Assembly (NCBI GenBank): GCA_963776285.1
Contig: CAVZLW010000006.1
Location: 38,188-102,187, forward strand
DNA length: 64,000 bases
Source of the DNA: an uncultured Chloroflexia bacterium
Lineage (GTDB): Bacteria > Chloroflexota > Limnocylindria > Limnocylindrales > CSP1-4
Direction of reading: 5' to 3'
Below, one piece after another: positions 2,688 through 29,911 of this stretch. The notes under the pieces are model-generated. The model was given only the letters and a program-made list of their open reading frames with translations. It searched no databases and was not told the DNA's origin. Made by a program: the position numbers and the translations under genes. Each line of letters opens with the position of its first letter. The first letter of the stretch is position 1.

Positions 2688-3443
2688 ATGTCGCCCGGAC
2701 GATGGATCCGCCGTCTCGCCGCCGTGCTCCTCGCCGCCTCGCTCAGCGCCACCCCCGCCGGCTCGGCCCACGCCGGATACCCGGGGACGATCGCCTCCAA
2801 CAGGAGCGCCTTCGAGCCGCCGTGCCTCGGGTTCGTCGACGCGTACCCCACGAAGATGCTCAAGGCGGCCACCGCCGCATTCGGCGCGCTCGGTTACGAG
2901 ACGCATGCGGACACCGGCGCCGCCTTCACCCGCGCCTCGTACCTCGCGCGGACCGGGAGCGATTGGGGCACGTACGTCCACTCGCATGGGGACTTCTACT
3001 GGCACGCCGCCGACGGACGGCGCTACTCGGGCTTCCGCGAGGACTCCGGGGACTGCAGCCAGGCGGTCGTCTACTCCAAGGACATCGCCCTCAAGCGAGC
3101 CGGGAAGCAGGCGAACCTCGTCGTGATGTCGATGTGCCACGTCGGCGAGGATGCGTCGACCATGCCGGGCGCCTTCGGGATCGCCAAGAAGCGATACCCC
3201 GCGGGCACCTGGGGCGGCCCCGAGTTCTTCGTCGGCTACCTCGGCTCGGCCTGGGACAACGACGAGTGGACGTTCGAGGTCGCCTTCTGGAACGCGATCG
3301 GCCCGGGCTACGGCGCGGGCGAGGCGTACGACGTCGCGTCGGCCCAGGTCTTCACCCACGCGTTCGACGCGAACTGGTGGGGCTCCTACGCGTACACGGG
3401 CCGGGCGGGGCCGCTCCCCTCCGGCTGCGACCGGTGCCTGTGA
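2688..3443 (+). CDS. secreted hypothetical protein (Cys/His-containing, possible CHAP/papain-like hydrolase fold)
   Basis: ORF 2688..3443. The N-terminus MSPGRWIRRLAAVLLAASLSATPAGSAHA is a Sec signal peptide. Amino-acid composition is diverse and non-repetitive (HSHGDFYWHAADGRRYSGFREDSGDCSQAVVYS...MSMCHVGED...), unlike the Arg/Pro-rich overlapping frames. The fold assignment is a guess. Confidence 0.7.
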   Translation: MSPGRWIRRLAAVLLAASLSATPAGSAHAGYPGTIASNRSAFEPPCLGFVDAYPTKMLKAATAAFGALGYETHADTGAAFTRASYLARTGSDWGTYVHSHGDFYWHAADGRRYSGFREDSGDCSQAVVYSKDIALKRAGKQANLVVMSMCHVGEDASTMPGAFGIAKKRYPAGTWGGPEFFVGYLGSAWDNDEWTFEVAFWNAIGPGYGAGEAYDVASAQVFTHAFDANWWGSYAYTGRAGPLPSGCDRCL

Positions 3444-3453
3444 GGTGAGCGCC

Positions 3454-4377
3454 ATGCACGCCTTCCGTCCGCGAGCCCGGCGCGCCGGGCTCCTCGTCCC
3501 CGTTGCCCTGGCCGTGGCCGGCGGGGCGCTCTTCCTCGGCGGGCCCGGAGGACCCGCGCCAGGCGACGCGGTCGATCGCTACCGGGCCGGCGAGCCGGCC
3601 AGCGTCCGGTCCGTCGTCCCGGCCGACGTGGCGACCCGCGTGCGCGCGCTCGGCCTGGCGCGCGCCCGCGCGCTCGGCGTGCCGGTCGGCACCGGCGCCC
3701 ACGTCACCCGCGTGAACGACCGCTTCTCCGGCGCCGTCTTCGACGAGGTCGTGACCACCGACGCCAGAGGCCAACGGCTCGGCATCGTCCGGATGGACCG
3801 CGATGGCCGCGTCGCGATGGCGGTCCGGGTCGGATGGCGAGCGACGACCGCTGCTCGCGTCGACGCCGCGACGGCCCGGGCGCGGGCCGTCGCGCTGGCC
3901 GGCACGTCCGGGATCGGCGGCGCCGGCACGCCGACCGTCTCTGCGGCCACCGACGGCGGCTGGCGCGTGACCTGGGAACGCGCGGTCGGCGGCGTGCCGG
4001 TCCCCGGGGACGGAAGCACCGTCACGCTGTTCGCCGATGGCACGTTCCACGCCGCCGCCCGCCGCGAGCGGCGCCTCGCCGAGGCGCCTGCGCAGAGGCT
4101 GGCGGAGGCGGCGGCGGAACGAATCGGCCGGGAGCGCCTCGCCTCGCTCCTCGGTCCGGCAAGCGGCGAAGCGCGGATCGTGCAGTCCCGCCTCGCATGG
4201 GTCGCTCCCAACGGCACGTTCGACGAGAGCGCGCCGGACGCGCCCGACCCGGTCCTGCGGCTCGCCTGGGTCGTGGAGGTGCGCACGGTCGCGCCCCTGT
4301 CCGAACGCCTCCGTGCGCTGGAGCTGTACCTGGACGCGGGCGACGGGACGCTGCTCGGCGGGGATCTCCTCCGGTGA
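3454..4377 (+). CDS. secreted hypothetical protein
   Basis: An ATG at 3454 lies 11 nt after the previous stop: MHAFRPRARRAGLLVPVALAVAGGALFLGG (signal/TM). The rest of frame 1 of ORF 3151..4377 is Ala/Arg-rich but coherent (…GGWRVTWERAVGGVPVPGDGSTVTLFADGTFHAAARRER…). This is possibly a PepSY-like fold. Confidence 0.6.
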   Translation: MHAFRPRARRAGLLVPVALAVAGGALFLGGPGGPAPGDAVDRYRAGEPASVRSVVPADVATRVRALGLARARALGVPVGTGAHVTRVNDRFSGAVFDEVVTTDARGQRLGIVRMDRDGRVAMAVRVGWRATTAARVDAATARARAVALAGTSGIGGAGTPTVSAATDGGWRVTWERAVGGVPVPGDGSTVTLFADGTFHAAARRERRLAEAPAQRLAEAAAERIGRERLASLLGPASGEARIVQSRLAWVAPNGTFDESAPDAPDPVLRLAWVVEVRTVAPLSERLRALELYLDAGDGTLLGGDLLR

Positions 4378-4473
4378 CCGAGCTCCCGCCGGCCCCGCCG
4401 GACATCCCGGCCCTGCCGGCAGATCCGGCGCCGGGCATGCCGGCTCCGGCTGCCGGCGCGGCGGGCCGGCGGG

Positions 4474-5554
4474 ATGGCAATGGTGGCGGCCGCCGCGACG
4501 CCGGTCGTCGCGGCGGCCCTCGCCGCAGTCCTCGTCGTCGCGAGCGGCTGCCGGGCGCGACCGCCAGGGCCGGAGACGACGCCGCCGGGCCTCTCCTCGC
4601 ACGGTCTCGTCCATGCCGCCGGCCGCATCTGCCCCGCCGAGCACGTCCGGGGCGGCCTCGGCGACCCCTGCCGGCGCCACCGCGATCCCGGGCTGGAGCG
4701 GCCCACGGCTGCTCCTCGTGGTCGGCGCCCCGTCACGGCCGCGCGGCGCGATCCACGACCTCGCACACCCGGACCATCCGGGCGTGCCCCTGGAGCTGCC
4801 ACGCGCGCTGGCGGACGGCGGGCTGGCAGCGCTGGCCGCGGCGCCGGGCGGCCGGCTTGCCGCGATCGGGCAGGACGGGGCGGCATGGGTGGCGCCGGCA
4901 CCCGCCGCGGGCGAGGCCGGCCCGCCCCGTTGGACGCCGGTCGCGGCGGCGGCATCCCGCCGGGGGCTCCCGGGGCCGATCCTCGGCGGGACGTGGAGCG
5001 TCGACGGGTCGGCGCTCGTGCTCATCGCGGGCGCACCCGGCTCCGGCGCGCGGAGGACCACGCTGCTGAGCGTCCCCGTCGACGGGTCGCGAGCGGCTGC
5101 CATCGAGGTCCCCCTCGAGGCCGACGGGCCGGCCGTCGCGGCCCTGCCCCGGCGGGTGGTCGCGTTCGTCGGCCGCGACCTCCACGATCGCACCGTGCTG
5201 GCACGCGTCGCCGCCTCCGGCTCCCTCGCGACGCTGCCCGTCGCCACTCGGGCGGTCGCTGCGGGAGGCGACCTCGTGGCGGTGGTCGACGACGTCGCCG
5301 TCCGCGTCGGCACGCTGGAGGACCTGGAACGAGGCGTCCTCCCGACCGACCCGCTGCCCCTGGACGGGCCGGGCGGCATCGGCGGGGTCGTGATCGCCCC
5401 GGACGGCGGCGCGGTGGCCGTGGTCCGTCTCGACGACCAGGGGGCCGCGGTGCGCGTCGAGGTCCTCCGTCGCGTCGAGGATGGATGGGCTCACGGCCCG
5501 AGCATCCCGCTGCAGGCCGCGGACGCCACGGCTCTCCCGGCGTGGCTCCCCTGA
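4474..5554 (+). pseudogene. putative lipoprotein with beta-propeller-like C-terminal domain; apparent frameshift around 4600-4640
   Basis: Frame 1 from 4474 encodes a lipoprotein signal, MAMVAAAATPVVAAALAAVLVVASGC, followed by a PT-rich linker (RARPPGPETTPPGLSSHGLVHAA), and then degenerates. Frame 2 is junk before about 4613. From 4613 to 5554 it encodes an S/T/A/P linker (MPPAASAPPSTSGAASATPAGATAIPGW) plus a coherent domain (…WSVDGSALVLIAGAPGSG…VAVVRLDDQGAAVRVEVLRRVEDGW…). The switch occurs near gccgccggccgc/cggggcgg runs. Confidence 0.5.
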
Positions 5555-5566
5555 CCCGGACACGTT

Positions 5567-5591
5567 GGACCCCGGCGCACGGCCGGGGTCC
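5567..5591. terminator. GC-rich hairpin between convergent genes (putative bidirectional terminator)
   Basis: ggaccccggc gcacg gccggggtcc is a perfect 10-bp inverted repeat with a 5-nt loop, lying between the stops of the 4474..5554(+) and 5652..5933(-) genes. There is no U-tract, which is usual at this GC content. Confidence 0.4.
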
Positions 5592-5651
5592 AGGGCGAGC
5601 GCAGGCCGGCGACGAGGGCCGGCCGACGGGCCGGCGGAGCCGGCCGGCGGA

Positions 5652-5933
5652 TCAGTTCGCCGCGGCGACCTCCTCGACCGCCGTGAAGATGGAGACCTGC
5701 GACGCCTCGGGCAGCATCTCGCCGAGGATCTTCTGCAGGGTCAGCTGGTGAACGCAGCTCTTCCAGCTCTCGAAGTAGTGGCACGTGCAGTGCCAGGCAC
5801 CGGCGTCGAGACTCACGTGATGCGTGTCGTTGTCGCCCCGAAACGTGACGCCGAGGCGATCGAACGTCAGGCGGTCGCGCTCGCGGGCGTAGCGATTCGC
5901 CTTCTCGACCTTGCCGATGAGAGAGCTGTGCAT
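5652..5933 (-). CDS. small SWIM zinc-finger domain protein
   Basis: ORF 5652..5933 (93 aa) has diverse composition. It contains ...AWHCTCHYFESWKSCVHQL..., which matches the SWIM CxCx(n)CxH zinc-finger signature. Confidence 0.6.
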   Translation of the reverse strand: MHSSLIGKVEKANRYARERDRLTFDRLGVTFRGDNDTHHVSLDAGAWHCTCHYFESWKSCVHQLTLQKILGEMLPEASQVSIFTAVEEVAAAN

Positions 5934-6072: not shown

Positions 6073-6162
6073 TCAGCCGCGGACGAGCGATTCTCCGGCG
6101 ACGAGGCAGGTGCTGGCTCAGCCGCGGACGAGCGATTCGCCGGCGACGAGGCAGGCGTCGGC
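6073..6162. repeat. 45-bp tandem direct duplication of the manB 3' end
   Basis: Segment 6118..6162 (tcagccgcggacgagcgattcgccggcgacgaggcaggcgtcggc) is the manB stop plus its last 14 codons. It is repeated immediately downstream at 6073..6117 with about 41 of 45 identities. The copy would encode ASTCLVAGESLVRG*, compared with ADACLVAGESLVRG* in the gene. Confidence 0.7.
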
Positions 6163-7602
6163 CACCGCAGCCGAGGTGGCCTCCGTGTAGACCCGGACCA
6201 GCGGCTCGGTCCCGCTGAAGCGGACGAGGAGCCACGAGCCGTCGCCGATGAAGAACTTGAAGCCGTCGTTCGTCGAGAGCTCGACGGTCCGGATGACGGG
6301 CTGCCCGGCGAGATCGGTCGGCGCCTTCTCGACCAGCTCGACGGCGAGGCGCTCCTTCATCGCCGGGTAGCTCGCCCGGTCCACGTGGACGTCCACGCGC
6401 TGGTAGAACGACGGCCCGGCGATCTCGTGGAGGTGGGCGATCGCCGAGGAGACGGGCCACCGGCCCGCGGCCCGCTCGCGCAGGAAGAGGTCCAGCAGGA
6501 GAAGGTCGGAGTAGATCCCGTCGCGCTCCGGGAGGTGCATCCCGAAGCCGTACCCGCCCGACTCCTCGCCGCCGTACATCGCCCCGGTCTCGATCATCTT
6601 CGGGCCGACGTACTTGAAGCCGACCGGGGTCTCGTGGACCGTGATCCCGTAGTGGGCCCCGAGCCGCTCGGCCATCGACGTCTCGTTCACGCTCTTGACC
6701 ACCGGCTGGCGCATCCCGCGATGCTCGGCCAGGTAGTACATCAGCAGACCGTAGACCTGCAGCTGGTGGACGAAGGCGCCCCGCTCGTCGATCGCGCCGG
6801 CCCGGTCGGCATCGCCGTCGAGGAGCAGCCCGAGGTCGAACCCGCCGCCCGCGACGACACGCAGGGCCTCGTCCACGTGCGGTCGGATCGGCTCGGGGTT
6901 CACGCCGCCGAAGTACGGGTTGCGCTCGGTGTGGAGCTCGACGACCTCGATCCGACCCCCGGACAGGAGGCGGCTGATCCAGCCGGCCCCGGATCCCCAC
7001 AGCGGCTCGACGAGGATCCGCACGTCCGCGGCCTTCAATGCCTCGAGGTCCAGGGTGCGGCGCACGAAGCGCTCGTACCCCTCGAACGGATCGAAGCGCT
7101 CGACCAGCCCGGCCGCCTCCGCCTCGGCCATCGGGCGGCGCGGGATCGGGCGCCGGCCGTTCTCCGCGATCACCGCCTCGAGCGTCGCCAGGATGTCGGG
7201 CCCCGCCGCCGCGCCGCTCGCGGCCTTCACCTTGAAGCCGTTGTCGGTCCACGGGTTGTGGCTCGCCGTGATGACCACCCCGGCCGCCGCGCCACGCTCG
7301 ACGACCTCGTAGCTCGCCATCTGGGTCGGGACGGCGTGGGCCGCGAAGGCGACGGGAATGTCGTAGGCCAGGAGCACCTCCGCGGCGGCGGCAGCGAAGT
7401 CCTCGGAGGCGAAGCGCCGGTCGTAGGCCACCACGACGCCTCGCGCCTGCTCGTGGCGGTCGGCGACGTAGCGGGCGACGCCCTCGGCGCAGCGGCGGAC
7501 GCTCTCGAACGTGAAGTCCTCGGCGATCCTCGCCCGCCACCCGTCGGTGCCGAAGACGATCGTGGCGGGAGCGGGGACGCTCTCGGCGACGGGCGTGGTC
7601 AC
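6118..7602 (-). CDS. manB: phosphomannomutase/phosphoglucomutase (alpha-D-phosphohexomutase family)
   Basis: ORF 6118..7602 (494 aa). It has the active-site Ser loop TASHNPWTDNGFK, the metal-binding loop DGDADR, and the GEESGG sugar-binding motif. Confidence 0.9.
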   Translation of the reverse strand: MTTPVAESVPAPATIVFGTDGWRARIAEDFTFESVRRCAEGVARYVADRHEQARGVVVAYDRRFASEDFAAAAAEVLLAYDIPVAFAAHAVPTQMASYEVVERGAAAGVVITASHNPWTDNGFKVKAASGAAAGPDILATLEAVIAENGRRPIPRRPMAEAEAAGLVERFDPFEGYERFVRRTLDLEALKAADVRILVEPLWGSGAGWISRLLSGGRIEVVELHTERNPYFGGVNPEPIRPHVDEALRVVAGGGFDLGLLLDGDADRAGAIDERGAFVHQLQVYGLLMYYLAEHRGMRQPVVKSVNETSMAERLGAHYGITVHETPVGFKYVGPKMIETGAMYGGEESGGYGFGMHLPERDGIYSDLLLLDLFLRERAAGRWPVSSAIAHLHEIAGPSFYQRVDVHVDRASYPAMKERLAVELVEKAPTDLAGQPVIRTVELSTNDGFKFFIGDGSWLLVRFSGTEPLVRVYTEATSAAVADACLVAGESLVRG

Positions 7603-8675
7603 GAGTCTTCCTCCCTGTCTCGGGCGAGCTCTTCGGCGATCCCGCGAACCTCCTGCGAGCGGTCGGCGGCGCAGACGAGCAGCGCGTCCGGCGTATCGAC
7701 GACGACCGTGTCGCGCAGGCCGATCGTCACGACCAGCCGGTCGCCGGCCAGCACGAGCGTGCCCTCGGAGCCGACGTCGCGGCGCGGCCCCGACCCGACC
7801 GCGCCGGCCGGCTCGCCGTCCGCCAGGGCCCGCGCCACCAGCGCGTCGCGCAGGGCCAGCCAGCTGCCGAGATCGCTCCAGCCCACGTCGGCCCGGAGCA
7901 TCGCCACGCGGCCGGCGACCGAGGCCGGCTCCATGACCGCGTAGTCGATCGACGTCGCCCGCACCGTCGCATACGCCGCCTCGAGGGCGGCCGGCCCGGC
8001 CGCCGCCCCCGCGCGGACCGCGGCGAGGATGTCGGGCGCCGACGCCGCGAGCGCCGCCAGGATCGTGTCGCGCCGCCAGACGAAGATCCCGGCATTCCAG
8101 GCGACCGGGTCGGCCCCCGCGAGGAGTGCCGCGGCGGCGTCCGCCGCCGGCTTCTCGACGAAGCGGCGAACGGCGCAGGCGCCCGCCTCGGGCCGAACGT
8201 CGCCGGCGACGATGTAGCCGTAGCCGGTCTGCGGACCGGCAGGCGCGATCCCGAGCGTGACGAGCGGGTGGTCCGCCGCGCCGGCCACCTCGGCCGCCCG
8301 CGCCAGGAGGGCGCGAAAGGCGGCTTCGTCGAGGACCAGGTGGTCGGCCGGCAGGACGGCCATCGCCTCGTCGTCGGCCCGCTCGACGGCCACCGCCGCC
8401 AGGGCGATGGCCGCCGCCGTGTTCCGGCCCGTGGGCTCCGCGAGCACGTTGCCCGGCGGGACCTCCGGGAGCTCCTCGCGGGCCAGCTCCGCGTGGCGCC
8501 GGTCGACGACCACGATCACGTCCTCCGGCCCGCCGAGGAGCGGACGCACGCGGTCGAAGGTGGCGCGCAGCAGGGTCCGCTCACCGAGAAGCGGCAGGAA
8601 CGGCTTGGGCCGGTCGGGACGCGACAACGGCCACAGCCGCGTGCCTCCGCCGCCGGCGAGGATCACGACGTACAT
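7599..8675 (-). CDS. manC: mannose-1-phosphate guanylyltransferase (GDP-mannose pyrophosphorylase)
   Basis: ORF 7599..8717 contains MYVVILAGGGGTRLWPLSRPDRPKPF, a nucleotidyltransferase G-loop; the start was taken at this internal Met. There is a 4-nt overlap with the manB start, indicating an operon. Confidence 0.85.
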   Translation of the reverse strand: MYVVILAGGGGTRLWPLSRPDRPKPFLPLLGERTLLRATFDRVRPLLGGPEDVIVVVDRRHAELAREELPEVPPGNVLAEPTGRNTAAAIALAAVAVERADDEAMAVLPADHLVLDEAAFRALLARAAEVAGAADHPLVTLGIAPAGPQTGYGYIVAGDVRPEAGACAVRRFVEKPAADAAAALLAGADPVAWNAGIFVWRRDTILAALAASAPDILAAVRAGAAAGPAALEAAYATVRATSIDYAVMEPASVAGRVAMLRADVGWSDLGSWLALRDALVARALADGEPAGAVGSGPRRDVGSEGTLVLAGDRLVVTIGLRDTVVVDTPDALLVCAADRSQEVRGIAEELARDREEDS

Positions 8676-8768
8676 GCCTGCAATTCTACGGGCCGTCACG
8701 GGATCGGTGCCCGGCATCGGGGCCGGGAGCTCGGAGAGCCGCCCGGCGACGCGCCGTGCGCCGGCCTG

Positions 8769-9386
8769 TCAGGGCCGCGGCCAGGCCCGCGAGAACGTCG
8801 TCGCCCGTTCGGGGCGCACCAGCACGTAGTCGAGATGCCACGGCTCGCGCTTCTGGGCCTCGTAGTACCGGTTGTACTGGCCGAGGAACGCATCGATGGC
8901 CATGTAGCGCACCGGCCACGGGTCGCGCGGCGACCCGAGCGGGCCCACCGCGTAGAAGCCGAGGATCTGGCGGGTCGCCGGCTTGCCGGGCACCTGGCTG
9001 ATGCGATAGCCGACGACGGACCACGCGTGGCCGCCGTGCCAGACGGTGATCCCCACCGGGTAGCCGGTCTGGTCGATCGCGTCGACGATGGCGCCCAGGG
9101 CAGCCGACCGGGTGGCATACGAGCGGTCCCGATACACCACCGGCAGCGTGTCGGGCAGGCGCCAGTTGAGCGCGCCGGCCCAGCCCCGGATGTCGTTTCC
9201 GGGGCCCTGGTAGCGGTAGCGGTTGAACCGGTACGTCACCGATGCGAGCAGCTTCTGGGTCGCGTAGCTCGTGTCGCGCGTGCCGAGGATCAGGTTCGCC
9301 ATCGTCTGGACGGACGCCGGGACGCACCAGGTGCTGGTGTACTGCAGGACGGCGGTCCCCGTCCGATACAGGTTGCGGCTGATCAC
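8769..9386 (-). CDS. peptidase C39-like (papain-fold cysteine peptidase) domain protein
   Basis: ORF 8769..9386. LQYTSTWCVPASVQTMANLIL resembles the C39 catalytic-Cys motif (Q…CGPASLAMVL). A later GGHAWSVVGY provides a candidate catalytic His. The GTG start overlaps the stop of the upstream PT-rich ORF (GTGA). Confidence 0.6.
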   Translation of the reverse strand: MISRNLYRTGTAVLQYTSTWCVPASVQTMANLILGTRDTSYATQKLLASVTYRFNRYRYQGPGNDIRGWAGALNWRLPDTLPVVYRDRSYATRSAALGAIVDAIDQTGYPVGITVWHGGHAWSVVGYRISQVPGKPATRQILGFYAVGPLGSPRDPWPVRYMAIDAFLGQYNRYYEAQKREPWHLDYVLVRPERATTFSRAWPRP

Positions 9387-9748
9387 GGCGGGCGTCGGCG
9401 ACGGGTGTCGGGACGGCGCGGGACCGGCGTCGGGACGGGCGTCGCCGTGGGGTCGGCAGCTGGCGTGGGCGTCGCGTCCGGCGCGGGCGCCGCGCTCGGG
9501 GCCGGGTCAGTCCAGGGTGACGGGGTCGGACCCGGCGTCGCCGCGGGCGTCGGGGTGGCGAGCGGCTGTGGCGCGGACGGGGCGGCGCGCGGCTGTGGCG
9601 CGGACGGGGCGGCGCCGCCGCTGGCGAGCACGCCGGCGGGGACGAGCAGGATCGCCACGAGCGCCGCGACGACGGCCCGTCGCGCGCGGCGGCTGAACCC
9701 ACGCGAAAGCCGCGCCTGCCGGCTCGCAGGCGGGAGCGGCGCGGCCAT
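9383..9748 (-). CDS. membrane-anchored Pro/Thr/Ala-rich linker protein (probable N-terminal part of the C39-like peptidase)
   Basis: The ATG at 9748 gives MAAPLPPASRQARLSRGFSRRARRAVVAALVAILLVPAGVLASGG, a signal anchor. This is followed by AAPSAPQPRAAPSAPQPLATPTPAATPGPTPSPWTDPAPSAAPAPDATPTPAADPTATPVPTPVP. The last 11 codons (RRPDTRRRRPP) look out of frame. Confidence 0.5.
   Translation of the reverse strand: MAAPLPPASRQARLSRGFSRRARRAVVAALVAILLVPAGVLASGGAAPSAPQPRAAPSAPQPLATPTPAATPGPTPSPWTDPAPSAAPAPDATPTPAADPTATPVPTPVPRRPDTRRRRPP
9562..9615. repeat. perfect 27-bp tandem repeat (2 copies) inside PT-linker coding region
   Basis: gcggctgtggcgcggacggggcggcgc occurs at 9562..9588 and again at 9589..9615. 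On the minus strand it encodes AAPSAPQPR twice. Confidence 0.9.
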
Positions 9749-9937
9749 GGCCGACCGTCCTCCGGTGGGCGGCGACGCGGGTCCGGCGACGGCCCTGGGC
9801 GGCACTCGCACTCGTACCCTCTCCACGCGGGCACGCCCCGGCGCCCGTGTCGAGGAGGATGGACCCATCGACCACCGATGGGAAGGGGTCGATCGTCCCG
9901 GTCGCGCGAGGCTCCCGGGCGTACCCCCGGGTGGGCG

Positions 9938-11236: not shown

Positions 11237-11929
11237 TCAGCGGCCGCAGACGCGCGGGCGGGCGCGCGGGCGCGCTTCCGCTGGGGAGGCCGCCACGGGC
11301 GGCCCGACCTGTGTCGCCTGGAGCATCACCTTCGCCCCGGTCCGGTACTGGTCCTCGGACGTCTGCAGGACGAGGGAGTTGGCGGGCAGAGCGTAGGCCC
11401 AGGCGAGCGACTTCTGGTGGCGCCGAACGCGCGTGATGCGGTAGGTGAAGAGCTGGTTCCGGGCGGTCCAGATCTTCACCGTCCTGCCGACGAGGGCCAG
11501 CCCCCGGTTCACCCGGGACGCCTCGAGGATCGGCAGGAACATCCCCTCCTGGGCGTGGGCGTACATGTAGGTCACGCCCCCGGCGCCGGGATGCTGGAAG
11601 GCCGGTGCCCCGAAGTACTCGGCCACGTCGCACAGCGGCCACGTCGAGTTCCTGGGCGGCGTGACGACGGGGAGGTCGATCCGCAGGACCGGGATCGCCA
11701 CGCGGGTCGGGCGGGCACCCGGGTCGACGGCCGCGGGCGACGGCGAGGGGGACGGGCTGGGGATGGGGCTCGACGAGTCGACCGGCGTGGCGCCCGGGAC
11801 CGGCGTCATGGACGGAGGCGGCGTCGCCACGGCCGGCGACGGGGACGGCGTGGCCGGCGGACTGATGGCACAGCCCGCGGCGACGAGGGCTGCGAGCGAC
11901 GCGGCGGCGAGGCCCCGGGCCCGCGTCAC
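11237..11929 (-). CDS. lipoprotein with PT/S-rich linker and sortase-like (class F-like) C-terminal domain; catalytic Cys apparently replaced by Ser
   Basis: MTRARGLAAASLAALVAAGC is a lipobox. The linker is SPPATPSPSPAVATPPPSMTPVPGATPVDSSSPIPSPSPSPSP. The domain begins VAIPVLRIDLPVV (sortase L.IP.IG.D.PVV), continues PGAGGVTYMYAHAQ (His motif) and NQLFTYRITRV, and ends LVLQTSEDQY where sortases have L.LxTC. Confidence 0.6.
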   Translation of the reverse strand: MTRARGLAAASLAALVAAGCAISPPATPSPSPAVATPPPSMTPVPGATPVDSSSPIPSPSPSPSPAAVDPGARPTRVAIPVLRIDLPVVTPPRNSTWPLCDVAEYFGAPAFQHPGAGGVTYMYAHAQEGMFLPILEASRVNRGLALVGRTVKIWTARNQLFTYRITRVRRHQKSLAWAYALPANSLVLQTSEDQYRTGAKVMLQATQVGPPVAASPAEARPRARPRVCGR

Positions 11930-21143: not shown

Positions 21144-21757
21144 TTCGCCCCGAACTTCCTCTCCTCGCCACGCCGCAGGCGCCCGATGTTGTCGAGATGG
21201 AAGAGCCAGATCAGGACCGGCGCTCCGATCGAGAACCCCAGCAGGGCGAGCGGCTCACCCGCAGCCAGGATCTGCACGGTGAACACGACGCCGCCGACGG
21301 CGGCGCTGACGAGCGAGGCCACGGACGTGTAGCGCGTGACACCGAGCACGATCAGGAAGACCACCAGCGTGACGATCGCCTGGGCGGGCGCCAGGACGAG
21401 CGCCGCCCCGAACGCCGCCGACACACCCCGGCCACCGGAGAAGCCGAGGAAGGGGGACCGGCTGTGGCCGACGATCGCGGCCAGTCCGGCGAGCACCTCG
21501 ACCTCGACGCCGGCCCCCAGGGCGCGGGCGAGCAGGACGGCCAGCGTGCCCTTGAGCATGTCCAGGATGCCCGAGACGAGGGCCAGCCGCGGACCGAGGG
21601 CTCGCATGACGTTTGCCCCGCCCGTCCGCCCGCTCCCGATCGTGCGCGGGTCGGGGCCGCCGGTGAGCCGGGCCACGATGACGCCCCAGGGGATCCCGCC
21701 GATGAGGAACGCGACCGCGACGATGGCGACGGCGCGAACGGCGGCGGCGAGGTCCAT
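21140..21757 (-). CDS. plsY: glycerol-3-phosphate acyltransferase PlsY
   Basis: In ORF 21140..22000 the first 81 codons are junk that overlaps the EI gene. The ATG at 21757 gives MDLAAAVRAVAIVAVAFLIGGIPWGVIVAR…GSGRTGGANVMRALG…HSRSPFLGFSGGRGV, which are PlsY motifs. Confidence 0.85.
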   Translation of the reverse strand: MDLAAAVRAVAIVAVAFLIGGIPWGVIVARLTGGPDPRTIGSGRTGGANVMRALGPRLALVSGILDMLKGTLAVLLARALGAGVEVEVLAGLAAIVGHSRSPFLGFSGGRGVSAAFGAALVLAPAQAIVTLVVFLIVLGVTRYTSVASLVSAAVGGVVFTVQILAAGEPLALLGFSIGAPVLIWLFHLDNIGRLRRGEERKFGAK

Positions 21758-21779
21758 GGCCGGGGAGTATAGGGGGCCG

Positions 21780-23989
21780 TCAGGCCCCGGAGCCGCCCTC
21801 CCCGGCCGCCCCGGCGATCCGCCCGAGGAGCGCGGACGCCAACGTCCGGACGGCCGTCGCGTCCCGCGCGACGAGCGCGGCGCCTGCCAGCTTGCGGAGC
21901 TCCGCGCTCGTGACGGCGGCCAGCGCCAGGCGCACTTCGTCGAGCGAGCCGGCGTCCGCAGACAGCTCGTCGACGCCCAGGCCGACGAGCACCAGGGCAC
22001 CTGCAGGGTCGCCGGCGAGCTCCCCGCACACGGCCACGGGGATGCCGGCGGCGTCGGCGCCGGCCACCACGCCCGCGATCGCCCGCAGCACGGCGGGATG
22101 GAGGGCGTCCTGGAAGCGACCCAACGTGGCGTTCCCGCGGTCCGCGGCCATCACGTACTGGGTCAGGTCGTTCGTGCCGATGCTGAAGAAGGCCACCCGC
22201 CGGGCCAGCTCCGGGGCAAGCAGCGCGGCGGCCGGGATCTCGACCATGATGCCGGTGACCATCGCCTCGGCGCAGACCTGGCCGGCCGCGAGGACCCCCG
22301 CACGGGCCTCGTCGCGCAGGGACTCCAGGAGGTCGACGTCGTCGAGAGTCGCGACCATGGGAGCCATGACGTGCGGTCGCACGCCGGCCAGCCCGCCGGC
22401 TCGCCAGATCGCCCGGAGCTGGGTCCGCAGGAGCTCGGGGTCGCCGTACGCCAGGCGGATCGCCCGCACGCCCAGGAAGGGGTTCGCCTCCGCCGGCAGG
22501 CCCAGGTAGGGGATCTCCTTGTCGCCCCCGATGTCGGCCAGCCGGACGACGACGGGGCGGTCCGGGCCGAATGCCTCGAACGCGCGCCGGTACGCGGCGA
22601 CCTGCTCGTCCTCGGTGGGCGGCACCTGGCGCCGCATGAAGAGGAACTCGGTCCGGAAGAGCCCGACGCCCTCGGCGCCGGCCTCGAGCGCCCGCGGCGC
22701 GTCGTCCGGATTGCCGATGTTCGCCACGAGGAGGACGCGGGCGCCGTCGGAGGTTGCCCCGGGCGCGGCCGCGCGCCGCGGCGGCCCTGGCGCGCCGCGC
22801 GGCGAGCGCCGCCGCGCGCTCGGCCAGGGCGGCCTTTCGCCCCGGCGTCCGGGTCGATGAGGACCTCGCCGGATTCGCCGTCGAGGGCGATCTCGACCGC
22901 GACTCCCGACGCGGCGGCGTCGTCGACCGCCTCCAAAAGCCCGGCGCACCCGACGACGCACGGGATGCCGAGCCCGCGGGCAAGGATCACCGCGTGCGCC
23001 GTCCGCGACCCGCCGGCGAGGGCGATGCCGCGCAGGAACGCGGCCGGGATCTCGGCCGTCACCGAGGGCGGCAGGTCGTCGGCGATCGCGACGACGGGGG
23101 CATCGGGGAGCGCCAGCGTCTCGCCGCGCAGGATCCGGGCGATCCGCGCGCCGACGTCCCGCACGTCCGCGGCGCGCGCCGCCAGCAGCTCGTCGCCGAG
23201 GCTGGCGATGGCGAGCGCCGCCTCCGATGCCGCGGCCGTGACGGCCGCGGCCGGGTCGGCTCCGGCCGTCACGCGCTCGAGAGCGTCGTCGACGATGGTC
23301 GGGTCGGTGGCCAGGACCGCCTGGGCCTCGAAGATCCCCGCGTCGTCGGGCCGTCCTGCTGCCCGGATGCGGGCTGCCAGCGCGTCGAGCTGGGCCTCGG
23401 CCTCCGCAGCTGCCGCGCGGATCGCGGTCGCGGGATCACCGGTTGCCGCGGCCGGCGCGGCGGACGGCTGCTCGCGATAGCGCCACGCCGGTGCCGTCGC
23501 GATGCCGGCGACGGCACCGTCCCCGCGAAGGCGGCGGGCGCCCGGATCCACCGCCGGGCCGGTCCCGGCCACGGCAGGCGACGGCGGCAGGGGCGGCCCG
23601 GGCTGGGCGGCAGAGGCCCCGGGGGCCGCAGGAACGGCAGCGGCCGACGGCGCCGCGGAGGCCGGCGACGCAGCAGGCGCTGCGGCGGCCTCGGGAGCCG
23701 CGGGACGCGGGGGGATCTCCTCGCCCAGGCCGGCCTCGATCGCCGCCCTGATGGAGGCGATCGCCTCCACCTCGTCCTCGCCCTGGGCCGTGATCCGGAC
23801 CACGTGGCCCATGCGCACGCCCAGCGGCTGGACCCTCAGCATCTGCTTCGCGTTGGCGGGACCCGCTCCCGTGGACAGGTTCTGGATCGTCACGTCCGAG
23901 CGGACCTTGCCGCAGGTCCGGACGAACTGGCCCAGCGGTCGCAGGTGGAGTCCGTTCGGGTTGCGGATCTCGATCTCGAGCGTCTGCAC
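21780..23989 (-). pseudogene. ptsI: HPr–Enzyme I fusion (ptsH-ptsI) gene, interrupted by two single-nucleotide frame changes
   Basis: Frame A (23989 down to ~22845) encodes an HPr domain (MQTLEIEIRNPNGLHLRPLGQFV…), an Ala/Pro linker, and the EI N-terminal and phospho-His domains (GGSRTAHAVILARGLGIPCVVGC). Frame C (about 22840..22760) encodes the EI linker helix RKAALAERAAALAARRARAAAARG. Frame B (22760..21780) encodes the PEP-utilising TIM barrel (LLVANIGNPDDA…GVGLFRTEFLFM…FFSIGTNDLTQY…CGELAGD). The switches occur at the C/G runs at 22840-22844 and 22757-22763. Confidence 0.75.
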
Positions 23990-24006: not shown

Positions 24007-25131
24007 TCAGGGCACGGGACGGCGAGGCTGGTCGGCCTCGGGGGCCGCCGGCGAGGCCGGACGACCGGCCTGGCCGGTAGCGAGGAGTGCGACGATGCGG
24101 GACGGCTCAGCCGCCAGGTCGGCGGCCAGGACCGGGTCGACGGTCGCCGCGTCGACGAGCGCGGCCAGGGCGGCATTGACCGGCGTCGCGACGCCGCACG
24201 CGATCCCGGCCCGGGCCACGGCCCCGTTGAGCCACGCGACCTCCGAGGGTCCCTCAGCTCCGCCCCGCAGGTGGAGCCGGAGGGACGGCGACTTTCCGCC
24301 GCGAGCCCCGCCGACCACCCGGCGCAGGGCGAACCGCGACAGCCGGCGCGGCAGGCGGATGCCGATGGCGAGGAGGGGCACGTTCGCTCCCGGGAGCCCA
24401 ACCGGCCGGATCTCCAGGGCGCGCATCACGGCGAGCGCCTCGAGCAGCTGGCGGCGCTCGACGTCGAAGAGCGCGGGGTCGGCGTAGAGGACCGCCGGGT
24501 CGCGGTCTGCGAGGGCGGAGAGCGCGTTGCCGACGAGATTGGCCAGCAGCTTCGACCACTTCATGGCCCGCGCATCGGAGATTCGCCGCGCCGGCAGGCC
24601 CGCCCCGCCGAAGTCGTCGACGAGCGCGGCCACCAGCCCGTCGACGTCCCCCGCGACACGGGCGAGGCCGATCCCGCCCCGGCCGCGCCACTCCACCTCC
24701 TGCGGGCGCGAGCGCTCGACCGGCGCGGTCAGCGAGCCGGCGACGTGGGCGATCCCCGGGCGGGCCGCCGCGACGAGGTCCTCCGCGCCGACGCCGTTCT
24801 GGATCGTCAGCACGGGAGCCGAGGGCCAGGCTCGCAGGTCGTCGAGGGCCCCGGCCAGGTCGAACGTCTTCACCGCGAGGACGACCAGGTCCGGGGACGC
24901 GGCGAGCTCGGCCGGGGTGCTCGCGCGGCGCACGCGTGCCACCACGCGACGGCCGTCCGGCTCGTGGACGACGATCTCGTCGCCCGCGTCGGGCACGCGC
25001 GGGTCCAGCAGGACGACCTCGGCGCCGGACGCGGCCAGGAGGCCTCCCAGCAGCGTCCCGACCGCGCCCGCCCCCAGCACGGCGACGCGCCGCGGCGCGC
25101 CGGGCAGGCCGGCCGCGGCGGTCGCGCTCAC
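24007..25131 (-). CDS. ketopantoate reductase (PanE/ApbA) family NAD(P)-dependent oxidoreductase
   Basis: It has the Rossmann motif VAVLGAGAVGTLLGGLLAASG, a catalytic Lys in VKTFDL, and KWSKLLANLVGNALSAL. The order and spacing of these match the PanE family. Its stop overlaps the dhaM start. Confidence 0.7.
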   Translation of the reverse strand: MSATAAAGLPGAPRRVAVLGAGAVGTLLGGLLAASGAEVVLLDPRVPDAGDEIVVHEPDGRRVVARVRRASTPAELAASPDLVVLAVKTFDLAGALDDLRAWPSAPVLTIQNGVGAEDLVAAARPGIAHVAGSLTAPVERSRPQEVEWRGRGGIGLARVAGDVDGLVAALVDDFGGAGLPARRISDARAMKWSKLLANLVGNALSALADRDPAVLYADPALFDVERRQLLEALAVMRALEIRPVGLPGANVPLLAIGIRLPRRLSRFALRRVVGGARGGKSPSLRLHLRGGAEGPSEVAWLNGAVARAGIACGVATPVNAALAALVDAATVDPVLAADLAAEPSRIVALLATGQAGRPASPAAPEADQPRRPVP

Positions 25132-25535
25132 TCCGGGATCTTGGGCAGGGTCGCGGCCTCCTCCGCCGCGGCGAGGACGGCGGCCAGGTCGTCGCCGCAG
25201 CTCGCCTGGACGGCGGCAACGACGGCGCCCTCCACCAGCGGCCCGCCCGACAGGCGGACCCGTGCCGCCGCCTGCTCCCCGAGGAGCTCCAGCGCCGTCT
25301 GGGTGGCCAGCACCGCGCTGCCCAGGTCGACGAGGACGAGGACGCCCGCCCCGGCGTCCGCGGCTGTGATCGCGGCCATGATGGCGGCGGCATCCGTTCC
25401 GAGCTGGCCGTCGGCGGTCCCGCCGGCGGCCTCGATGCGCAGGTCGTCGCCGGCCATCTGGCGGGCCAGCTCCACCGTCCCTGCCGCGATCTGCGCGGAG
25501 TGGCTGACGATGACGATCCCGACAAGCTCATCCAT
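25128..25535 (-). CDS. dhaM: PTS-dependent dihydroxyacetone kinase phosphotransferase subunit, EIIA(Man)-like domain only
   Basis: 135 aa. GIVIVSHSAQIAAGTVELARQM … GTDAAAIMAAI … LVLVDLGSAVLATQTALELLG … RVRLSGGPLVEG aligns closely to the E. coli DhaM N-terminal domain (phosphorylatable His in VSHS). It has no HPr or EI-like extension. Confidence 0.85.
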   Translation of the reverse strand: MDELVGIVIVSHSAQIAAGTVELARQMAGDDLRIEAAGGTADGQLGTDAAAIMAAITAADAGAGVLVLVDLGSAVLATQTALELLGEQAAARVRLSGGPLVEGAVVAAVQASCGDDLAAVLAAAEEAATLPKIPE

Positions 25536-25544
25536 GGCGGGTTC

Positions 25545-25937
25545 CTATGGCGCCGCGTTGATGATCGCCGCGAAGAGGACGACCCCGTAGACGACGGTGA
25601 TGATGCCGACGACCGACAGGACGTTCGTGATCCGCCGCTCCGTCCGCTCCGAGAAGCCGAAGTCGAACAGGATGGCCCGCACGCCCACCAGGGCGTGGTA
25701 CGTCACGAAGACCAGGAAGCAGACCTCGAGGACGATCACCACCGGGTTCCGCAGCCAGTCGATGACCTCCTGGTAGAAGCGCAGCCCGCTTGGCGCGACG
25801 AAGTGCTGGGCGATCATGTGCAGCCCCAGCAGGACGATCAGCGCGACGCCGCTGACGACCTGGCCCACGAAGACCGGCACGCCGCGCGAGCCGGCGGGGC
25901 GATCGGCCGGCCGTGGTTCGGTGGCCATCTCGCTCAC
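25545..25937 (-). CDS. succinate dehydrogenase-type hydrophobic membrane anchor subunit (SdhD-like)
   Basis: 130 aa with three predicted TM helices and a conserved His in HALVGV. It lies 3 nt downstream of the SdhC-like gene. Confidence 0.6.
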   Translation of the reverse strand: MSEMATEPRPADRPAGSRGVPVFVGQVVSGVALIVLLGLHMIAQHFVAPSGLRFYQEVIDWLRNPVVIVLEVCFLVFVTYHALVGVRAILFDFGFSERTERRITNVLSVVGIITVVYGVVLFAAIINAAP

Positions 25938-25940
25938 CTC

Positions 25941-26360
25941 CTACTCGCCCGCGAAGATCCGAAGCGCCCCGACGAGCGCCACGAAGGCCGCGATGACCAT
26001 GAACGCGATGAAGAGCGCCTTCTGCCGGCTCGCCACGAGCCCCAGCCCGACGAGACCGACGCGGATCCCGTTCAGGCCGTGGATCAGCATCCCCGTCAGG
26101 AGGAAGACATCGAGAAGGAGGAACGGGGGGCTGAGCGCGATGTTGACGAAGCTGTCCCAGGCGTTCGGCCCCTGGACCAGCATCGACAGGATCATCAGGT
26201 GGAGATAGAGGTAGACGACGAGGCCGAGCCCGGTGAGGCGGTTGAGGATGAAGGCCAGGCCACCGAGGCGACGGCCGCGCGGGTCGAACCAGCCGACGAT
26301 GCCCCGGCGACGCGCGGGGCCGGCTACGGGCCGCGGCCGCTCGACGGTCGTGCTCGCCAT
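25941..26360 (-). CDS. succinate dehydrogenase-type cytochrome b subunit (SdhC-like)
   Basis: 139 aa with three TM helices (…LAFILNRLTGLGLVVYLYLHLMILSM…LTGMLIHGLNGIRVG…), carrying candidate heme-ligating His residues. Its ATG overlaps the SdhB-like stop (TGATG). Confidence 0.6.
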   Translation of the reverse strand: MASTTVERPRPVAGPARRRGIVGWFDPRGRRLGGLAFILNRLTGLGLVVYLYLHLMILSMLVQGPNAWDSFVNIALSPPFLLLDVFLLTGMLIHGLNGIRVGLVGLGLVASRQKALFIAFMVIAAFVALVGALRIFAGE

Positions 26361-27106
26361 CAGCGGTTTCCTCCGAACGAGAAGAGGCGTCGCGCCCGGG
26401 CCGCGGCGGCCGACCGGCGGAGCCGCATGATCGCGGCTGCCGGGTCCACGCCGGACGGGCAGGCCTCGGAGCACTCCCAGGTCAGGTGACAGCGCCAGGC
26501 GGCCTGGTCGTCGTCCATCAGCCGGATGACGGGGCCCGGGTCGAGCCCGCGGGGCTCCTCGACCACGCGCCACGCCGCGGCGAGCGCGGCGGGGCCCACG
26601 TAGCGCGGGTCGCTGCCGGCCACCGGACAGGCGGAGAGACAGATCCCGCACTCGATGCAGTCCTCGTAGCGATCCAGCTCGTCGATCCCTTCCGCCTTCT
26701 CGGCGCCGGGGATCTTCTCCGAGGACCTGACCAGCGGCCGGCCGGCCTCGTCGAACTCGTCGAAGAAGACGTTCATGTCGACGACGAGGTCGGAGAGGAC
26801 CGGGATGTTGTCGAGCGGCTCGACGACGACCTCGGCGCCGGCCGGAACGGGCGTCACGCAGGCCAGGCCTTCCCGGCCATTCACCTGCATCCCGCACGTC
26901 CCGCACGAGGCGTGGAAGCAGGAATGCCGGAAGGTCAGGCTCGGGTCGAGCTCGCGGCGGATGGCCACGAGCGAGTCGAGGATGGTCGTGCGGGGCCCGA
27001 CGGCCACGTCGAAGGTGTCGTAGCGCAGCGCCGCGGGATCGTCGCCCTCCTTCCGGCGGGAGACGACGAAGCGGGTCGTGCGGAGGTCGGTCGCGCTGTC
27101 GGTCAT
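26360..27106 (-). CDS. succinate dehydrogenase/fumarate reductase-type iron-sulfur subunit (SdhB/FrdB family)
   Basis: The 2Fe-2S segment DPSLTFRHSCFHASCGTCGMQVNG…LAC…DLVVDM is followed by CIECGICLSACP ([4Fe-4S]), GPAALAAAWR, and CHLTWECSEACP ([3Fe-4S]). It is collinear with E. coli SdhB. Confidence 0.85.
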   Translation of the reverse strand: MTDSATDLRTTRFVVSRRKEGDDPAALRYDTFDVAVGPRTTILDSLVAIRRELDPSLTFRHSCFHASCGTCGMQVNGREGLACVTPVPAGAEVVVEPLDNIPVLSDLVVDMNVFFDEFDEAGRPLVRSSEKIPGAEKAEGIDELDRYEDCIECGICLSACPVAGSDPRYVGPAALAAAWRVVEEPRGLDPGPVIRLMDDDQAAWRCHLTWECSEACPSGVDPAAAIMRLRRSAAAARARRLFSFGGNR

Positions 27107-27116
27107 CGCTCCGCTC

Positions 27117-28304: not shown

Positions 28305-28373
28305 GTGCTGCGCTCCGCGCCCTGACAGGGAGATGCCCGGGCCCCGCGTGCGGGGCCCGGGCACCGGGAGGGT

Positions 28374-29873
28374 CTAGTCGACCCAGCCGAACGTGCGGGT
28401 GACGGCCTTCTTCCACTGCGCGTACTCGGCGTCGACCTTCGCGGGATCCATGGTCGGATGCCACTCGTGGTCCTTCGCCCAGTTCGCGCGGAGGTCCTCG
28501 ACCTCGGCCCAGTAGCCGACCGCCAGGCCGGCCGCGTAGGCCGCCCCGAGGGCCGTCGTCTCGGCGACCTTCGGCCGGATGACCGGGACCTTCAGGACGT
28601 CGGACTGGAACTGCATCAGCAGGTTGTTGTAGACCATGCCGCCGTCGACCTTGAGGGCCGTCAGCGGAACGCCGGAGTCGGCGTTCATCGCGTCCAGGAC
28701 CTCGCGGGTCTGCCAGGCGGTCGCCTCGAGCACGGCTCGGGCGATGTGGCCCTTGTTGACGTACCGGGTCAGGCCGGCGATGACGCCGCGGGCGTCGTTC
28801 TTCCAGTACGGCGCGAAGAGGCCGCTGAACGCCGGCACGAAGTAGACGCCGCCGTTGTCCTCGACCGTGGCCGCCAGGGCCTCGATGTCGGGCGACGCCG
28901 CGATCAGGCCGATGTTGTCGCGGACCCACTGCACGAGGGCGCCGGTGATGGCGATCGACCCCTCGAGGGCGTACACGGCCGGCTGGTTGCCGATCTTGTA
29001 GCCGAGCGTCGTGAGGAGGCCGCTCTTGCTCGGGACGGCCTTCGTGCCCGTGTTGAGGAGCATGAAGCAGCCCGTGCCGTAGGTGTTCTTCGCCTCGCCG
29101 GGCGAGAAGCACGTCTGGCCGAAGAGGGCAGCCTGCTGGTCGCCCAGGTCGCCGGCGACGGGGACGCCGAGGAGGTCGCCGACGGCCCGGCCGTAGACCT
29201 CGGACGAGGCCTTGACGGCGGGCAGCATCGCGTGCGGGACGCCGAGCAGCGCGGTGATCTCGGGATCCCAGGCCAGCGTGGTGTAGTTGAACATCAGGGT
29301 CCGGCTGGCGTTGGAGACGTCCGTCACGTGGACGCCGCCGGTGGTGCCGCCCGTCAGGTTCCAGATGCACCAGGTGTCGATGTTGCCGAAGAGGAGGTCG
29401 CCGGCCTCGGCCGCGGCGCGCGCGCCGTCGACGTTGTCGAGGATCCACTTGACCTTCGGGCCCGAGAAGTAGGTCGCCAGCGGCAGGCCGGTCTTGGGGC
29501 GGAGGCGATCCGGGCCGCCGTCCTTCTCGAGGTAGTCGCAGATGTCCTTGGTGCGCGTGTCCTGCCAGACGATGGCGTTGTAGACGGGCTTGCCGGTCTT
29601 CTTGTTCCAGACGACCGTCGTCTCGCGCTGGTTGGTGACGCCGACGGCGGCGAGGTCCTCGGCCTTGAGGTGAGCCTTGGCGAGGGCGCCCTTGATGACG
29701 TCCTGGCTGCGCGCCCAGATCTCCATCGGGTCGTGCTCGACCCAGCCGGGCTTCGGATAGATCTGCTCGTGCTCCATCTGATCGATCCCCACGACCTCAC
29801 CGGCGTGGTTGAAGATCATGAAGCGGGTGCTCGTGGTCCCCTGGTCGAGGGCCCCCACGAAGTTCTTCGCCAT
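28374..29873 (-). CDS. glpK: glycerol kinase
   Basis: 499 aa. [27 protein letters not shown] and KVDGGM follow the FGGY-family GlpK organisation. Confidence 0.97.
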
Positions 29874-29911
29874 GTGTGTCTCCCGATATCGGTTGACCCT
29901 GACTTGCCGGA

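Follow-up and report, generated by a model that had tools for sequence, protein, structure and literature searches.

A frameshift-split gene for a predicted exported papain-fold cysteine peptidase next to manC-manB in Ca. Limnocylindria

Sequence comparison across a 64,000-nucleotide stretch of DNA (the window) indicates that two overlapping minus-strand open reading frames, ORF-U (9868..9383, 161 aa) and ORF-D (9386..8769, 205 aa, GTG start), are one gene, spanning 9811..8769 of the minus strand and broken by a one-base frameshift in a Pro/Thr linker. The intact protein would consist of a Sec signal peptide, a flexible Pro/Thr/Ala linker and a 200-aa papain-fold domain with Gln15, Cys21, His120 and probably Asp155 as its active-site residues. 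We assign a probability of roughly 0.8 to this explanation as a whole, that is, to a single frameshifted gene for an exported papain-fold cysteine peptidase with a role in the cell envelope, broken either by error or by recent mutation.

The two ORFs share four bases, GTGA. The 5' part of the gene, in frame a (9383..9811, minus strand), carries the likely GTG start, a basic n-region, the signal peptide, the PT linker and an out-of-frame tail, and ends in an apparently false TGA stop (9385..9383, minus strand). In a three-frame translation, frame a is linker-like up to TPVPTPVP, which ends at 9419, and then continues as the 11-codon, Arg-rich tail RRPDTRRRRPP (9386..9418, minus strand), for which no counterpart was found in any orthologue examined. 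Frame c upstream of the ORF-D GTG reads ...APSRHPSPTPA-VISRN and is linker-like from PSPTPAV, starting at 9404, where it matches the orthologue motif P-x-P-V-V-I-T-R. The first-pass annotation, made from the sequence alone, had noticed both the linker-like sequence in two frames and the out-of-frame appearance of the Arg-rich tail, and both observations hold; the double linker is not a product of chance, because the coding frame changes inside a linker rich in CCG, ACG and GCC.

The change from frame a to frame c takes place within 9404..9421 (minus strand) and corresponds to a net 1-nt deletion or a 2-nt insertion; short C3 runs lie in or near this zone (9422-9420, 9412-9410 and 9405-9403, minus strand). 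A GC3 frame plot confirmed both frames, with values of 0.93-1.0 in the ORF-D domain, and is blind to the switch point inside the linker because all frames are GC-rich there. Aligning the window DNA with the two closest loci did not fix the exact position of the indel, since the linker is too variable. The closest relative (P0001, 90% identical, at locus L001) is uninformative for the break because its own locus is full of frameshifts, with metK and S9 genes fragmented too, and the protein search returned no relative exceeding 90% identity. A path through two insertions (a to b to c), which yields the clean linker ...TPVPTPVP-AVPT-PSPTPAVISRN, was not adopted because it needs two events. In the single-event reading, the net loss of one base within the final ~18 nt of the linker (9421..9404) would have created the Arg-rich tail and the stop that follows it.

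The organization of orthologous loci argues for a single gene. Signal peptide, linker and domain lie in one ORF in all 26 full-length homologues (260-340 aa), and signal peptide, PT linker and domain do so at about 50 of 60 species-representative loci, the exceptions being cut by a contig end or being long-read MAG loci with split HSPs. All loci found belong to the Chloroflexota, class Ca. Limnocylindria. A tblastn search with ORF-U matched the single-ORF orthologues in their N-terminal portion, and the h-region of ORF-U is near-identical to that of the orthologues (RRAVVAALVAILLVPAGVLA versus RALVAALVAALLVPGGVLA). In the alignment, the ORF-D GTG falls on the conserved valine of VVITR, and one orthologue (L002) has the same GTGATC in frame. 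Read against these sequences, the apparent GTG start is a conserved internal valine of a V-I-T/S-R motif and the TGA is the Val-Ile codon pair GTG ATC read out of frame, such that these two codons would account for both the false stop and the false start. The earlier proposal of one exported protein broken by an indel of about 1 nt near 9419 is therefore supported by the single ORFs of the orthologues.

The first-pass annotation had named the GTGA overlap as an alternative to a frameshift. On such a reading there would be two genuine, translationally coupled genes, one for a small exported PT-rich protein and the other for a separate cytoplasmic peptidase. Stop-start overlaps of the ATGA/GTGA type are a common coupling arrangement and both ORFs are open, yet we regard this organization as highly improbable: the sequence contains no Shine-Dalgarno element before GTG 9386, a codon for a conserved valine; the Arg-rich tail has no equivalent in the orthologues; and ORF-D would lack the export signal that is present in every family member examined except fragments and broken copies. 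Two coupled genes sharing the same overlap, the pattern that would speak for separate genes, did not appear in the orthologue survey. Even less credible is programmed -1 ribosomal frameshifting that joins both frames during translation. The relation of frame a to frame c does equal a -1 shift, but no X XXY YYZ slippery heptamer occurs in 9440..9383, no Rfam element is present, the orthologues, being in one frame, need no shift, and no such shift site was seen in relatives.

What broke the gene is a more balanced question, and we lean slightly towards a base-calling or assembly error in the GC-rich, low-complexity stretch over a very recent real mutation. Were the frameshift real, the gene would be a very recent pseudogene or a within-population slippage variant whose domain is no longer exported and probably not made, a scenario to which we give somewhat less than even odds. 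It draws on the clean state of the rest of the window, in which 35 other ORFs were scanned against Pfam and all 27 with a family match show no sign of truncation, on the presence at the site of C3 runs only, which are not classic error-prone homopolymers, and on the repetitive linker with its exact 27-bp duplication, such linkers being natural hot spots for slippage. The domain, however, is undecayed, keeping all 25 family-invariant residues and a GC3 of ~0.95, and the gene is kept across the class in a conserved row. Moreover, all split copies seen in the family stem from long-read assemblies, with no such copy among the short-read ones, a pattern that suggests errors as a common cause.

The protein more likely starts at GTG 9811 or 9805 than at ATG 9868, because the orthologue N-termini (VPV..ASAGP..) align there, at V20/V22 of the window protein, behind the Shine-Dalgarno-like GGAGAGGG (9817..9824, minus strand), which is read from the sequence and precedes GTG 9811 by 5 nt and GTG 9805 by 11 nt. 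A basic N-region then precedes the h-region AVVAALVAILLVPAGVLA (9623..9676, minus strand). This hydrophobic segment had been taken for a transmembrane anchor; it has instead the look of a Sec signal peptide that would be cleaved, for in nearly all orthologues a conserved A-x-A closes the h-region and an acidic or small residue (E/D/A) comes next. Cleavage is predicted after VLA, giving a mature protein that begins with SGGAAPS at 9622. The Pro/Ala/Thr/Ser-rich linker that follows in frame a (9419..9622, minus strand) comprises 68 aa, including 23 Pro, 17 Ala, 10 Thr and 5 Ser, and linkers also occupy this position in the orthologues, where they vary in length and sequence. The perfect 27-bp tandem repeat reported earlier is real and exact, consisting of 54 nt in two identical copies (9562..9615, minus strand) that encode AAPSAPQP(R/L) twice; TRF gives a period of 27 and 2.7 copies.

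Downstream of the linker, frame c encodes a domain of 205 aa plus stop (8769..9386, minus strand) that we assign to papain-fold, C39-like/endolysin-like cysteine peptidases on the basis of an AF2 model, Foldseek matches and homologues. The model (pLDDT 90.3, pTM 0.89) predicts a papain-like (clan CA) fold in which an N-terminal Cys helix packs on a His-bearing beta-sheet, with Cys21 as the first residue of helix 21-34 and His120 as the first of strand 120-132. The best Foldseek matches in the PDB are the C39 domains of PCAT1 (7n87) and LahT (6mpz), papain-like CDI toxins and UfSP, all with probability 1.0, and the best viral fold matches, in BFVD, are mycobacteriophage Lysin A (best E-value, 1.2e-4), cyanophage lysozymes and a Gordonia phage endolysin (TM 0.59/0.60). 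The Foldseek E-values, from 1e-4 to 3e-3, are modest, the TM-scores lie between 0.45 and 0.6, and all top hits are clan CA enzymes.

The predicted catalytic residues are strongly conserved among the aligned representatives of the best 150 hits. The predicted nucleophile Cys21 (codon 9324..9326, minus strand) is Cys in 131 of 131, the predicted oxyanion-hole Gln15 (9344..9342, minus strand) is Gln in 129 of 131, and the predicted general base His120 (9027..9029, minus strand) is His in 144 of 146; the candidate third residue, Asp155 (8924..8922, minus strand), is Asp in 109 of 133 and Ser or Thr in the rest. Gln15, Cys21 and His120 are invariant among 28 close homologues, and the Q-x5-C spacing matches that of clan CA and C39.

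A sequence search with the domain returned 36 homologues, and the wider family forms 798 clusters at 50% identity, all of whose members are labelled "hypothetical". PF13529 (Peptidase_C39_2) matched 14 of the 28 homologues weakly, with a best E-value of 4e-5 and scores of 18.4-20.6 bits, below the gathering cut-off of 24 bits. ORF-D itself gave no match in Pfam (none at E<=1 for PF13529), NCBIfam, PHROG or PDB sequences; PDB sequence searches, whether run with the single sequence or with profiles, yielded nothing beyond low-complexity or designed-repeat noise. PHROG endolysin families 6007, 1519 and 16428 were matched weakly in 9, 7 and 2 of 18 members, from the homologues and not from ORF-D. 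The C39-like assignment thus rests on the homologues and the predicted fold. Of the earlier proposal, the C39-like domain stands at the level of fold, together with the weak PF13529 matches of the homologues, whereas a significant C39-family HMM match to ORF-D did not materialize; the Peptidase_C39_2 search it had suggested for 8769..9386 came back empty, and BtrH_N, its other candidate family, was never matched.

Once exported and relieved of its signal peptide, the intact protein would act as a Cys-His amidase or peptidase at the cell surface. Among the catalytic domains listed for lysins of phages that infect Gram-positive hosts is Peptidase_C39_2 (PMC8223927). By analogy with such phage-lysin domains, the substrate would most likely be peptidoglycan or another wall-attached peptide. 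The PF13529 and lysin domains share the papain-like fold and the Q-x5-C ... H arrangement with the window protein, their sequence matches to the family are weak and recurrent, and lysins are the best viral fold matches; the homologues nevertheless score below the cut-off and the window protein is unmatched. Unlike phage lysins, moreover, the window protein is chromosomal, apparently Sec-exported and single-domain, with a PT linker, and a tblastn search against phage genomes matched no phage record. The C39 domains of PCAT/AMS proteins (PCAT1 7n87, LahT 6mpz) are the best matches among solved structures and have the same catalytic Gln/Cys/His layout. They are cytoplasmic, fused to ABC transporters and cleave double-glycine leaders, whereas the window protein is free-standing, predicted to be exported and ~60 residues longer, with no sequence-level match to them; no ABC transporter gene neighbours it in the window, and the homologues, of 260-340 aa, stand alone and carry an export signal at the N-terminus. 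A further parallel is provided by CWB2-anchored Firmicutes surface proteins with enzymatic domains: in two of ten distant family members the domain is joined to three CWB2 cell-wall-binding repeats, which places the domain at the cell wall in these members, whereas the window protein and its orthologues have no wall-binding module, the window protein carrying the PT linker only.

On the same strand, 51 nt beyond the peptidase gene, lies manC (7599..8717, minus strand), a mannose-1-phosphate guanylyltransferase gene with Pfam NTP_transferase (1.6e-37) and ManC_GMP_beta-helix matches, and its stop is overlapped by manB (6118..7602, minus strand), a phosphomannomutase/phosphoglucomutase gene with Pfam PGM_PMM domains I-IV. 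The row ends with a gene for a conserved 93-aa CxC...CxH protein (5652..5933, minus strand) without a Pfam match, which is 73-98% identical in 44 loci and always downstream of manB. The co-directional adjacency to manC-manB described in the first-pass annotation is real and conserved: 47 loci carry the domain gene, manC and manB on one strand, and the gap has a median of 53 nt. All four genes remain linked at protein identities ranging from 40% to 90%, and it is the upstream neighbours that have changed. Scans for promoters and terminators and for Rfam elements gave nothing useful; the gene probably shares a transcript with manC-manB within a conserved cell-envelope row of Ca. Limnocylindria. 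A functional tie between the exported Cys-His enzyme and the use of GDP-mannose, for example in processing or attaching a mannose-containing wall polymer or surface glycoprotein, seems unlikely to us, and if true would explain why the row stays together while the upstream neighbours changed.

Actinobacteria O-mannosylate PT linkers of this kind on secreted proteins with the same architecture of signal peptide, Pro/Thr-rich linker and catalytic domain, and the first-pass annotation had speculated that the gene adjoins manC-manB because GDP-mannose supplies the mannose for O-mannosylation of its own linker. The 15 Ser/Thr among the 68 linker residues and the conserved adjacency would suit this idea, which gained no support from our analysis and which we consider more doubtful still than a general tie to GDP-mannose use. 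Five orthologues without a PT linker (L015, L016, L029, L050 and L061) keep the manC-manB adjacency, which is therefore independent of the linker; in contrast to the actinobacterial case, glycosylation here is speculative. Conversely, PT linkers occur on other exported proteins of the window, such as the sortase-like ORF at 11237..11929, so that adjacency to manC-manB is not needed for them. The Pfam scan of 35 ORFs of the window, the split gene excluded, turned up no glycosyltransferase, GT39 PMT or polyprenol-phosphate-mannose synthase, and none was found in the conserved row at two distant loci.

Ca. Limnocylindria is a widespread class of soil and freshwater bacteria without cultured members. 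For annotation, our results mean that both ORFs belong in a single merged gene model flagged as frameshifted, and that the start-stop overlap is not to be read as translational coupling. The protein itself appears to be an uncharacterised and fairly ordinary cell-surface enzyme that overturns nothing known. The case nevertheless defines an uncharacterised family of predicted exported C39-like/endolysin-like cysteine peptidases, comprising ~800 clusters and missed by current Pfam thresholds, and places on record its conserved row with manC-manB in Ca. Limnocylindria, a class for which any handle on the cell envelope is useful.

At a G+C content of ~74%, the window carries on its minus strand two ORFs that overlap by GTGA: an upstream ORF of 161 aa (ORF-U, 9868..9383) and a downstream ORF of 205 aa with a GTG start, which encodes the peptidase domain (ORF-D, 9386..8769). 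In ORF-U a basic N-region precedes a hydrophobic stretch, AVVAALVAILLVPAGVLA (9676..9623, minus strand), directly followed by a linker of 68 residues, nearly all Pro, Ala, Thr or Ser; the C-terminal tail is RRPDTRRRRPP, and the frame of ORF-D 5' of its GTG reads APSRHPSPTPA. An exact tandem duplication (2 x 27 bp) occupies 9615..9562. On the same strand, manC (8717..7599) begins 51 nt 3' of ORF-D, and manB (7602..6118) comes next. Each of these elements, described in a first-pass annotation, is present in the sequence, and its structural reading of one exported protein is upheld here, but not the membrane anchor or the glycosylation link that it also proposed. The locus is a single frameshift-split gene for a predicted secreted clan CA peptidase, C39-like or endolysin-like.

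Searching ORF-D against 5.8 billion proteins revealed 36 relatives, most of 260-340 aa. All 26 full-length relatives are single ORFs comprising a basic N-region, an h-region, a PT-rich linker that varies in length and, last, the domain, which starts with (V)VITRxLYR. A species-level scan (one genome per species) found 60 loci, nearly all labelled Chloroflexota, Chloroflexia or Ca. Limnocylindria/Limnocylindrales, and ~50 of them have the same single ORF. The exceptions are two loci truncated at a contig end (L017, L031) and eight loci from long-read MAGs (L001, L009, L012, L038, L051, L054, L059, L060), several of which also have broken neighbor genes; among the 60 loci scanned, no short-read locus has a split peptidase gene. 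Judging by these eight split loci, long-read assemblies seem commonly to carry frameshift errors in this GC-rich gene. ORF-U shows homology to the N-terminal portion of the orthologous single ORFs, its h-region being almost identical to those of L004 and L007. In alignments, the conserved Val of a V-I-T/S-R motif falls on the GTG "start" of ORF-D, and in the orthologue at L002 the same GTGATC is in frame, so that the TGA "stop" of ORF-U is only an out-of-frame Val-Ile. No Shine-Dalgarno sequence precedes the GTG at 9386, and GGAGAGGG (9824..9817, minus strand) precedes the GTG codons at 9811/9805, where the N-termini of the orthologues align. The single-ORF orthologues, in which the ORF-U and ORF-D parts are joined, the homology of ORF-U and the conserved Val at the GTG show one gene here, with a change from frame a to frame c, as the earlier view of one protein split by an indel had it.

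Three-frame reading places this change, a net 1-nt deletion (or 2-nt insertion), between 9419, where the last clean frame-a codon ends, and ~9404, the first clearly linker-like codon of frame c, and the earlier estimate of 9419-9424 was about right; the linkers of different species do not align, which precludes fixing the exact base. Programmed frameshifting was rejected: neither a slippery heptamer nor an RNA element is present, and none of the orthologues needs a shift.

The frameshift is slightly more probably a sequencing or assembly error than a real, recent mutation, at odds of about 55:45. The stretch is GC-rich and of low complexity, every split copy seen in the gene family comes from a long-read assembly, and the domain is undecayed, with all 25 family-invariant residues kept and a GC3 of 0.93-1.0, all of which favors error. 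A real mutation, only a little less probable, would agree with a window that is otherwise clean, since all 27 Pfam-matching ORFs among the 35 other ORFs scanned are without sign of truncation (most align to their profiles almost end to end), with C runs of just 3 nt at the site, and with the nature of repeat-bearing linkers as slippage sites. No relative >90% identical was found among the 5.8 billion proteins searched with ORF-D.

In all 26 full-length relatives the h-region ends in A-x-A, followed by an acidic or small residue; in nearly every orthologue that residue is E, D or A, giving cleavage-like junctions (ALA/EE, VLA/DE, VRA/ED, AAA/DE), and the junction in the window is VLA/SGG. The A-x-A junction is the signal-peptidase I pattern, making a predicted cleaved signal peptide more likely than the N-terminal membrane anchor first proposed.

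In Ca. Limnocylindria the peptidase gene sits in a conserved row with the GDP-mannose genes, and the adjacency to manC-manB noted earlier is real. At 47 loci manC and manB follow the peptidase gene on the same strand, with a median gap to manC of 53 nt (<=100 nt in 41/47), over peptidase identities from 90% to 40%; the link is broken or rearranged at L011, L014 and L049, and more distant paralogues (30-36% identity) are wholly without it. The upstream neighbor varies: the window's group has metK there, the distant group an HTH-cupin regulator next to an ABC transporter. Just 3' of manB lies a gene (5652-5933, minus strand) for a 93-aa protein with a CxC-x10-CxH motif (WHCTCHYFESWKSCVH) and no Pfam match, the spacing of which resembles a SWIM zinc finger. 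This protein is 73-98% identical across 44 Limnocylindria loci, always just downstream of manB, and is therefore much more strongly conserved than the peptidase gene. Two distant loci have a cupin ORF between manB and the 93-aa protein gene (L016 9165-9554, plus strand, 130 aa; a similar one at L030 9136-9546); that of L016 matches the mannose-6-phosphate isomerase C-terminal domain, extending the mannose theme of the row, and the window lacks such a cupin ORF. Same-strand adjacency with short gaps in 47 loci makes the row a conserved, probably co-transcribed unit; a simple scan, uninformative at the window's G+C content, found no terminator or promoter.

The suggestion that the row reflects O-mannosylation of the linker, flagged as speculation when made, gains no support: five orthologues (L015, L016, L029, L050, L061) have a short N-terminal region and no PT linker and still keep the manC-manB adjacency. 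Neither the window ORFs scanned with Pfam nor the conserved row at two distant loci yielded a glycosyltransferase. A PT/PS-rich linker also occurs on another exported protein of the window, a sortase-like lipoprotein of 230 aa (11237-11929, minus strand) that combines a lipoprotein-type signal (LVAAGC) with a weakly scoring Sortase domain (22.6 bits vs a cut-off of 26.6). The gene for it, located between an S9 peptidase gene and metK, is not conserved beyond the closest relatives of the window.

Elsewhere in the window, long, very GC-rich ORFs or regions (3443-5652, 21333-23477, 52592-53704, 58920-60716) have no Pfam match, and at 3443-5652 codon-position G+C picks out no single frame. A glycerol/dihydroxyacetone row (25131-32586, minus strand), all genes of which appear intact, encodes a MIP channel, DhaK (Dak1), DhaL (Dak2), an FGGY kinase, a DAO-type FAD oxidoreductase (glycerol-3-phosphate dehydrogenase-like), an Fe-S subunit, an Sdh_cyt membrane subunit and an EIIA-man (DhaM-like) protein.

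ORF-D alone has no match in Pfam, NCBIfam, PHROGs or PDB sequences. Its C39-like character, proposed at first pass, is supported by the predicted fold and by PF13529 (Peptidase_C39_2), which 14 of 28 homologues match (best E 4e-5) at 18-21 bits, below the Pfam cut-off of 24 bits; the family is uncharacterised and lies below Pfam's thresholds. A confident AlphaFold model built from 28 sequences (pLDDT 90.3, pTM 0.89) best matches the C39 peptidase domains of PCAT1 (7n87) and LahT (6mpz) among solved structures, together with papain-like CDI toxins, Ufm1-specific proteases and a phytochelatin-synthase-like enzyme, all of clan CA (probability 0.94-1.0, with 1.0 for the C39 domains; E 2e-3 to 0.1; TM 0.43-0.55). 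Among viral predicted structures the top matches comprise the Lysin A of a mycobacteriophage (E 1.2e-4), an endolysin from a Gordonia phage (TM 0.59/0.60) and cyanophage "lysozymes", and three PHROG families, all annotated endolysin, are matched by 9/18, 7/18 and 2/18 members. Phages that infect Gram-positive hosts have lysins for which Peptidase_C39_2 is listed as one of the catalytic domains (PMC8223927).

Searching 1.84 billion cluster representatives with a profile gave 798 family members at E<=1e-3 (487 at E<=1e-10), none with a functional name. In the best 150 of the 798, the predicted catalytic residues (ORF-D numbering) are Cys21 in 131/131, His120 in 144/146, Gln15 in 129/131 and the candidate third residue Asp155 in 109/133; clan CA and C39 enzymes share this Q-x5-C...H layout. 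In two distant members there are three CWB2 cell-wall-binding repeats. Other distant members, P0036 (344 aa, 29% identical) and P0047/P0048/P0052, have a reverse order: signal peptide, domain, PT linker and C-terminal transmembrane anchor, so that the domain would be tethered to the membrane from either end, depending on lineage. The analysis establishes the fold, conserved catalytic residues and export signal of the protein, and our reading is that it would be exported and act at the cell wall as a catalytically competent amidase or peptidase of the Cys-His type, with peptidoglycan as its most likely substrate.
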